Sequence record: LR999871 | Reading direction: 5' to 3' (one strand) | DNA from: Escherichia phage vB_Eco_Jura | DNA length: 64,000 nt | Shown: piece after piece, positions 7,257 to 7,656 of the stretch | Layout: each line of letters opens with the position of its first letter | How positions within the stretch are numbered: the stretch's first letter is position 1 | Position numbers and translations under genes: made by a program | The notes under the pieces: model-generated | The model's database searches: none | What the model was told of the DNA's origin: nothing | Seen by the model: the letters and a program-made list of their open reading frames with translations, nothing else

Positions 7257-7421
7257 GTGGCTACAAAGCTACTGCTGGGTGTGGTGGTGTTTATAGTTTT
7301 GATTCTTCTTATTGTCAGAATTATAGACGTGTCGGCTCCATACCTAGCATTCATTATCACCGTCATTATCTTGTATAAGTGCTGTGGTAGTGGTGGTGAC
7401 ACTAAGCCGCCAGATGTTTAA
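7257..7421 (+). CDS. candidate small hydrophobic peptide (54 aa, GTG start)
   Basis: GTG-initiated frame VATKLLLGVVVFIVLILLIVRIIDVSAPYLAFIITVIILYKCCGSGGDTKPPDV with two membrane-like segments; weak SD (GGGTAA); its last 33 nt lie in copy 1 of the tandem repeat. Confidence 0.2.
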   Translation: MATKLLLGVVVFIVLILLIVRIIDVSAPYLAFIITVIILYKCCGSGGDTKPPDV

Positions 7422-7431
7422 CTAACAAGAG

Positions 7432-7470
7432 GCGACTGGATTACTCTCCCCAGTCGCTTCGTTAGTTTAT
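7432..7470 (+). terminator. intrinsic terminator candidate (repeat copy 1)
   Basis: Stem GCGACTGG/CCAGTCGC (7432-7439 / 7450-7457), 10-nt loop, then TTCGTTAGTTTATT; ends the plus-strand replication operon. Confidence 0.45.
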
Positions 7471-7558
7471 TCATCGCTTAGTAAATACCCAAATAAAGAA
7501 AGAAGTTGTTTCTTGAGTGGTGGTGACACTAAGCCGCCAGATGTTTAACTAACAAGAG

Positions 7559-7597
7559 GCGACTGGATTACTCTCCCCAGTCGCTTCGTTAGTTTAT
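7559..7597 (+). terminator. intrinsic terminator candidate (repeat copy 2)
   Basis: Identical hairpin 127 bp downstream (7559-7584) with the same T-rich tail. Confidence 0.45.
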
Positions 7598-7656
7598 TCA
7601 TCGCTTAGTAAATACCCAAATAAAGAAAGAAGTTGTTTCTTGAAATTAGTTACTGC

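Follow-up and report, generated by a model that had tools for sequence, protein, structure and literature searches.

Our analysis indicates that the perfect 127-bp tandem duplication in the window (the whole stretch of DNA that was analysed, 64 kb in length) is very probably a de Bruijn-graph assembly artefact, and that the second copy is absent from the phage itself. As judged from comparative sequence evidence, the hairpin carried by the single copy is a real conserved structured element, with a stem that covaries across five genera of N4-like phages.

Results

The duplicated unit and its setting

By direct string comparison, positions 7389-7515 are the same as positions 7516-7642 in 127 of 127 bases, head to tail, and TRF reports the interval 7389-7643 with a period of 127, 2.0 copies, 100% matches and a score of 510. 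Both results bear out the two identical head-to-tail copies described in an earlier note on this DNA. In the 64-kb window no other perfect tandem duplication has a period of 30-1000 bp and no other large direct repeat was found, and a perfect match of 127 nt cannot be of chance origin. Because the repeat runs on by one chance base (A at 7643), its phase is uncertain by 1 nt. The junction between copy 1 and copy 2 reads ...GTTGTTTCTTG/AGTGGTGGTGAC..., or, written differently, ...AAGAAGTTGTTTCTTG/AGTGGTGGTGACAC..., and its microhomology amounts to 1 nt (A), which is chance level. Copy 1 (7389-7515, + strand) matches the single copy of all relatives, and copy 2 (7516-7642, + strand) appears as a clean 127-bp insertion against seven aligned relatives; which of the two is called the “extra” one is arbitrary. 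We interpret copy 2 as an untrimmed assembler overlap of k = 127.

On the 5´ side of the repeat lie homologues of N4 gp43 (primase), gp44, gp45 (SSB), gp46 and gp47. On its 3´ side, and outside it, follows a tRNA cluster on the + strand (7700-8378; Asn, Ser, Thr, a tRNA-like stretch and Pro), in which tRNA-Asn begins at 7700. The position after the replication genes and in front of the tRNA cluster had thus been described correctly. The boundaries of the 127-bp unit are without functional logic; one of them cuts a small ORF 33 nt ahead of its stop codon.

This small hydrophobic ORF (7257-7421, + strand) has a GTG start, encodes 54 aa and ends in GGDTKPPDV. With the repeat starting at 7389, its last 33 nt do lie in copy 1, as had been proposed. 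The ORF, put forward earlier as a candidate, turned out to be real and conserved across genera: it is annotated as bas69_0030 in AlfredRasser, matches phrog_19025 (unknown function), and gave tblastn matches in 63 N4-like records from Escherichia, Shigella and Klebsiella phages.

Two side observations concern this region. The C-terminus of the small ORF follows the form GGD(T)KPP(D/E), and five genera have every nucleotide of the codons GGTGGTGAC...AAGCCGCCAGA in common; elsewhere in the ORF synonymous changes accumulate. In the predicted fold the GGTGGTGAC and AAGCCGCCAGA blocks are able to pair as a small upstream hairpin, and a C-terminus of Pro-Pro-Asp/Glu beside a conserved hairpin could point to translation-coupled regulation. 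Further downstream, between tRNA-Thr and tRNA-Pro, lies an unannotated stretch of ~134 nt (window about 8052-8185) whose conservation in Gamaleyavirus and Klebsiella N4-like phages amounts to 90-95%, well over their background similarity. It terminates in tRNA-like T-arm/acceptor sequence and is labelled “tRNA-Undet” in AL25 and SPSP; in UE-M3 a “tRNA-Cys” annotation lies under the match. ARAGORN and Rfam made no call for this stretch.

The phage and its relatives

The window derives from an N4-like coliphage (Schitoviridae, Enquatrovirus); its identity is 99.4-99.7% with vB_Eco_AL25 and 99.0-99.5% with PMBT57. It differs from its relatives by hundreds of scattered mismatches (about 0.4-0.9%) and by an extra HNH gene, and on sequence grounds the phage is an isolate distinct from both AL25 and PMBT57.

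The extra gene of ~510 bp (window 50783-51319) encodes a 178-aa homing endonuclease with HNH_3 and AP2 domains and sits between both N4 RNAPII subunit genes (gp15/gp16 homologues). In a DNA search with the insertion, the gene was missing from AL25, PMBT57, N4 and all other records of the phage collection. The sequence flanking the insertion falls to about 93% identity, and a distinct HNH gene occupies the corresponding position in G7C. Exact-protein look-ups with the HNH endonuclease and the virion RNA polymerase of the window returned no match. The origin of the record (window 1-521) falls within the DNA polymerase gene, which in this lineage is split by an insertion of ~695 bp with an HNH endonuclease (PMBT57 69934-70628); the polymerase of N4 is uninterrupted and 859 aa long.

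One copy in all other records examined

A comparison of relatives for one versus two copies, as the earlier note had suggested, yielded one copy in 15/15 Enquatrovirus records and in 10/10 additional assemblies; two copies were seen in no other isolate or assembly among these. In detail, 14 full-length relatives align with the query in two pieces, covering ~2374 bases against 2501 in the query, i.e. 127 fewer. A probe for the junction was split into two pieces around a single stretch of 127-128 bp in all 15 Enquatrovirus records, and a multiple alignment with seven relatives shows a clean gap of 127 bp. The remaining copy is identical to the window unit over its whole length in AL25, SPSP, PMBT57 and VEc25. 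The 10 further independent assemblies (NCBI isolates, ENA metagenome scaffolds and Logan run assemblies) were chosen for encoding a gp47-like protein identical to that of the window. In these, the next gene after the gp47-like protein begins 1511 nt downstream (1638 nt in the window), and both the unit and the hairpin are present once in each. The junction itself was not found in the phage collection (megablast), in IMG/VR, in metagenome contigs or in GTDB genome contigs.

The 127-bp signature and the record origin

The largest k-mer of the standard SPAdes series is 127, and 127-bp overlaps in phage genomes have been tied to this k (PMC5923482, PMC7372960). Phage pipelines in print report artificial 127-bp overlaps at contig ends (PMC5923482, PMC7372960), and a 127-bp terminal repeat has been removed before a genome was “reopened to be syntenic” with a reference (PMC8104045). 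The MEGAHIT contigs that were met in our searches carry k141 labels.

The window, PMBT57 and AL25 share their base 1, and positions 1-7516 align without gaps. This shared origin inside the DNA polymerase gene is arbitrary. That a distinct isolate has the origin of PMBT57 and AL25 therefore argues for a de novo assembly that was rotated afterwards.

Two sister records, the closest relatives of the window, carry the same signature. In vB_Eco_SPSP (OV049961.1) the first 127 nt equal the last 127 nt (1-127 and 70853-70979), and vB_Eco_AL25 (OW991345.1) has a perfect internal 127-bp duplication with 2.0 copies at 69904-70157. Compared with the uninterrupted N4 polymerase, the latter straddles the junction between the polymerase gene and the HNH insertion (23 nt coding plus 104 nt insertion). 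Like the window, both records belong to the same species and show the exact length and perfect identity, and the AL25 repeat is also internal in a record with the PMBT57 origin. The sites differ, with record ends in SPSP, the polymerase/HNH-insertion junction in AL25 and the gp47-tRNA spacer in the window. Such differences among records are just what arbitrary contig break points predict. Natural duplications of exactly 127 bp at three unrelated sites within one species are not credible. PMBT57 is without such a 127-bp repeat. After subtraction of 127, the lengths of AL25 and SPSP come to 70850 and 70852, near the 70857 of PMBT57.

As for annotation in the sister records, a gp2 CDS at the record ends of SPSP spans the origin and is labelled a pseudogene, and the AL25 duplication splits the annotated polymerase ORF (646 aa vs 654 aa), the difference concerning read-through into the insertion. 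The idea that the AL25 duplication would be lethal was dropped, given that it straddles the coding/HNH-insertion junction and that 646 versus 654 aa reflects read-through into the insertion. A remnant of the N4 terminal repeat was likewise rejected as the source of the window repeat: by coordinate offset the left end of N4 corresponds to window ~45.4 kb, far from 7.4 kb. The repeat does not mark the physical end of the genome.

Structure and conservation of the hairpin

The hairpin that the earlier note had described as GCGACTGG-N10-CCAGTCGC is indeed found in each copy, the second at +127. Its arms are GCGACTGG (7432-7439) and CCAGTCGC (7450-7457), enclosing the loop ATTACTCTCC (7440-7449). 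It is larger than that description: the core stem pairs 7429-7439 with 7450-7460 around the 10-nt loop, and the extended structure (7420-7467, + strand) is an interrupted stem of 18 pairs with a 2-nt bulge. The same hairpin at 7547-7594 (+ strand) is, on our reading of the duplication, an artefactual second instance. The fold energy of the 127-bp unit lies 5.4 standard deviations below that of shuffled sequences (z = -5.4), and the hairpin is always located directly 3´ of the stop codon of the small ORF.

Covariation was assessed in eight sequences collected by protein homology, from Enquatrovirus, three Gamaleyavirus, Moovirus and two Kaypoctavirus among them. Within this set, 108 of 108 pair cells are standard pairs, seven of 14 pairs show compensatory double changes, and none of 500 shuffles reached the observed pairing and covariation; when the 3´ arm was slid, pairing fell to 30-51%. 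The 8-nt loop core TACTCTCC is invariant in the same eight sequences. For the wider collection a DNA pattern was used, because an IMG/VR search with the gp47-like protein had returned N4 alone. A covariance model then picked up 37 instances, 24 of them distinct, in contigs of viral and metagenome origin, with 99.7% pairing. Since these 37 had been fetched with a pattern that requires the loop and were aligned to the model afterwards, this set supports the stem and not the invariance of the loop. G-U pairs appear only when the + strand is read, which argues for a sense-strand RNA or, less likely, for single-stranded + strand DNA.

Within the window the covariance model matches at 7410-7467 and 7537-7594 (64.7 bits each, identical), and the next best match has 12.7 bits (E = 0.34). 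The matches being limited to the two duplicated copies, the hairpin is therefore a one-per-genome element and not one of a terminator family; a recurring terminator family had been considered and was rejected on finding the hairpin at that single site. Rfam has no family for the unit: in 7200-8900 the tRNAs alone pass the threshold, and matches to the unit have E ~1. The hairpin is not in Rfam, carries no annotation in the records examined and was not found in the literature searched.

Assessment of the hairpin as a possible terminator

A terminator with a T-rich tail, as proposed in the earlier note, is not supported by our data. Rho-independent terminators are expected to have a G+C-rich stem, a loop of 3-8 nt and a U-rich tract directly 3´. 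The stem here is of this kind; the 10-nt loop is not. The 3´ tail TTCGTTAG, in which 4 of 8 bases are T, is taken up in the extended stem by pairing with the upstream CTAAC, which leaves no free U-tract, and homologues from other genera have TGGTTCAAC-like sequence after the stem with no T-run. The hairpin thus resembles Rho-independent terminators in being a G+C-rich sense-strand stem-loop at the end of a gene block, and differs from them in its 10-nt loop, in lacking an uninterrupted U-tract and in having its tail paired into the stem. A terminator scan does not call it on the + strand. In Gamaleyavirus, Moovirus and Kaypoctavirus the RBS of another gene lies within 10-25 nt of the stem; in G7C the gene after the hairpin is an HNH endonuclease. 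The annotators of AL25 and SPSP marked many terminators, none of them at the hairpin, and the several stem-loops marked in G7C do not include it. Taken together, the hairpin is probably not a canonical terminator.

Two strong canonical terminators occur elsewhere in the neighbourhood. One, at 8825-8854 (+ strand), has a 12-pair stem and a T-run and separates the tRNA region from the gp48 homologue; the other, at 9745-9762, is bidirectional and separates the gp49 homologue from the virion RNA polymerase gene, which is convergent with it. For the tRNAs, a scan of 6800-9900 revealed no + strand sigma-70 promoter, either within the unit or downstream of it.

The loop and its complement

The hairpin loop is the exact complement of a recurring RBS, GGAGAGUA. 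On the + strand this sequence occurs four times in the window, three times in the first 36 kb of G7C and twice in the first 36 kb of KP8, in all cases 3-7 nt before an ATG. The window sites (GGAGAGTA, + strand) are located at 46075-46082, 46918-46925, 53567-53574 and 55842-55849, and the genes behind them are gp2, gp4, a superinfection-exclusion gene and gp24. Those in G7C (1337, 9848 and 16296) and KP8 (1341 and 17157) stand before gp2, gp24 and rIIA. All three genera have conserved the element tctGGAGAGTAcaaaATG before gp2, whose product is the cofactor of the middle RNA polymerase. The statistics of the 8-mer are weak, with ~1.9 occurrences expected per window and 2 of 100 shuffles reaching 6. 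The complementarity could reflect pairing between loop and RBS or a binding factor shared by both.

In the N4 lineage the start of gp2 is marked by GGAGAGTAcaaaATG. The annotated gp2 starts in G7C (1256-1732) and KP8 (gp005, 1254-1748) lie ~95 nt before this conserved site, and the N-terminal extensions annotated for both proteins may be wrong.

Discussion

Origin of the duplication

The following course of events would account for the window record. A terminally redundant N4-like genome would yield a circular assembly path, and a linear SPAdes contig drawn from it would repeat its first k bases as its last k, with 127 as the largest k. The contig would then have been cut and re-joined to begin at base 1 of PMBT57, with the overlap left untrimmed. 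Both 127-bp ends would in this way have come to lie head to tail inside the record, at the original start and end of the contig (7389/7516). The real genome would hold one copy, consisting of the 3´ end of the small membrane-protein gene, the conserved RNA hairpin and an AT-rich spacer before the tRNA genes. For this record, the identity of the assembler and the re-opening step are what we infer. Of the features to be expected of a SPAdes overlap, the following are observed: a length equal to the k of 127, perfect identity, a repeat unique in the window with a second copy absent from the relatives and independent assemblies compared, a re-opened coordinate origin, and the same signature in sister records. 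The end overlaps known from circular or terminally redundant phage assemblies are likewise perfect and 127 bp long (PMC5923482, PMC7372960, PMC8104045). They sit at record ends, unlike the internal repeat of the window, which would need a rotation before trimming; to reopen a genome at the start of a reference is common practice. With respect to origin, the earlier note had favoured a recent duplication or one maintained by recombination and had mentioned an assembly artefact last; length, relatives, record origin and sister records speak for the last option and against the former two.

Natural tandem duplications, which arise by slipped-strand events or illegitimate recombination, usually have short microhomology at the junction, and phages do undergo genuine tandem duplications with little or no microhomology. 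Such duplications resemble that of the window in being head to tail and, when recent, perfectly identical. A genuine, very recent event of replication slippage or illegitimate recombination, private to the window isolate and leaving it with two hairpins, would fit the perfect identity and the private distribution, and it would be tolerable in a region that is non-coding save for 33 nt of the ORF tail. Even so we regard it as very unlikely: the length matches the SPAdes maximum k to the base, the junction microhomology is just 1 nt, two copies were seen in no other assembly, and none of the collections searched contained the junction. Nor would natural events explain perfect 127-bp repeats at other sites or record ends in two sister records; natural duplications have no reason to measure 127 bp in three records and would be expected in some related isolates.

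Still further from likely, to the point of being negligible, is a duplication kept by selection or recombination because two hairpins end transcription better before the tRNA genes. The hairpin is strongly structured and stands at the end of the replication gene block, as such a function would have it, but zero relatives keep two copies, the hairpin fails the + strand terminator criteria, in other genera its homologues are without a T-tract and genes follow directly, and canonical terminators are available further downstream (8825-8854 and 9745-9762). A technical origin not specific to SPAdes, for instance two overlapping contigs that were joined or a mistake made in scaffolding or polishing, has an equally minute share of our expectation. 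The software is not identifiable from the sequence, and joining by hand any two ends with a 127-nt overlap would give the same result, but 127 is the maximum k of SPAdes in particular. As far as the biology is concerned, this variant and the SPAdes artefact lead to one and the same conclusion.

Possible role of the hairpin

Turning from the assembly artefact to the single-copy element, our best guess, held with low confidence, is that the hairpin is a sense-RNA element acting post-transcriptionally, either as a 3´ protection or processing site or through a loop-mediated interaction. By analogy, antisense or kissing-loop hairpins and 3´ mRNA stabiliser stem-loops come to mind, given the covarying stem, the invariant 8-nt loop, the sense strand and the occurrence once per genome. 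Unlike known antisense and kissing-loop RNAs, the hairpin has no Rfam match, the statistics of its complementarity are weak and the interaction is a predicted one. A more specific proposal, which we consider unlikely, is that it might be an undescribed regulatory RNA of the Enquatrovirinae that would adjust the translation of gp2 and a small number of other early or middle genes through pairing of its invariant loop UACUCUCC with their RBS, GGAGAGUA.

Conclusions

The chief value of the duplication lies in quality control, with the window record, AL25 and SPSP all carrying what we read as untrimmed 127-bp overlaps. Such overlaps lengthen genomes and produce false “repeats”; that of AL25 also disrupts the DNA polymerase ORF as annotated. 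An automatic filter for perfect tandem repeats of exactly 127 (or 55, 77 or 99) bp should be applied to re-opened phage genomes ahead of any biological reading. As a by-product, the analysis brings to light a structured element that is not terminator-like, has an invariant loop and occurs in five N4-like genera, and which merits experiment in the well-studied transcription system of N4.
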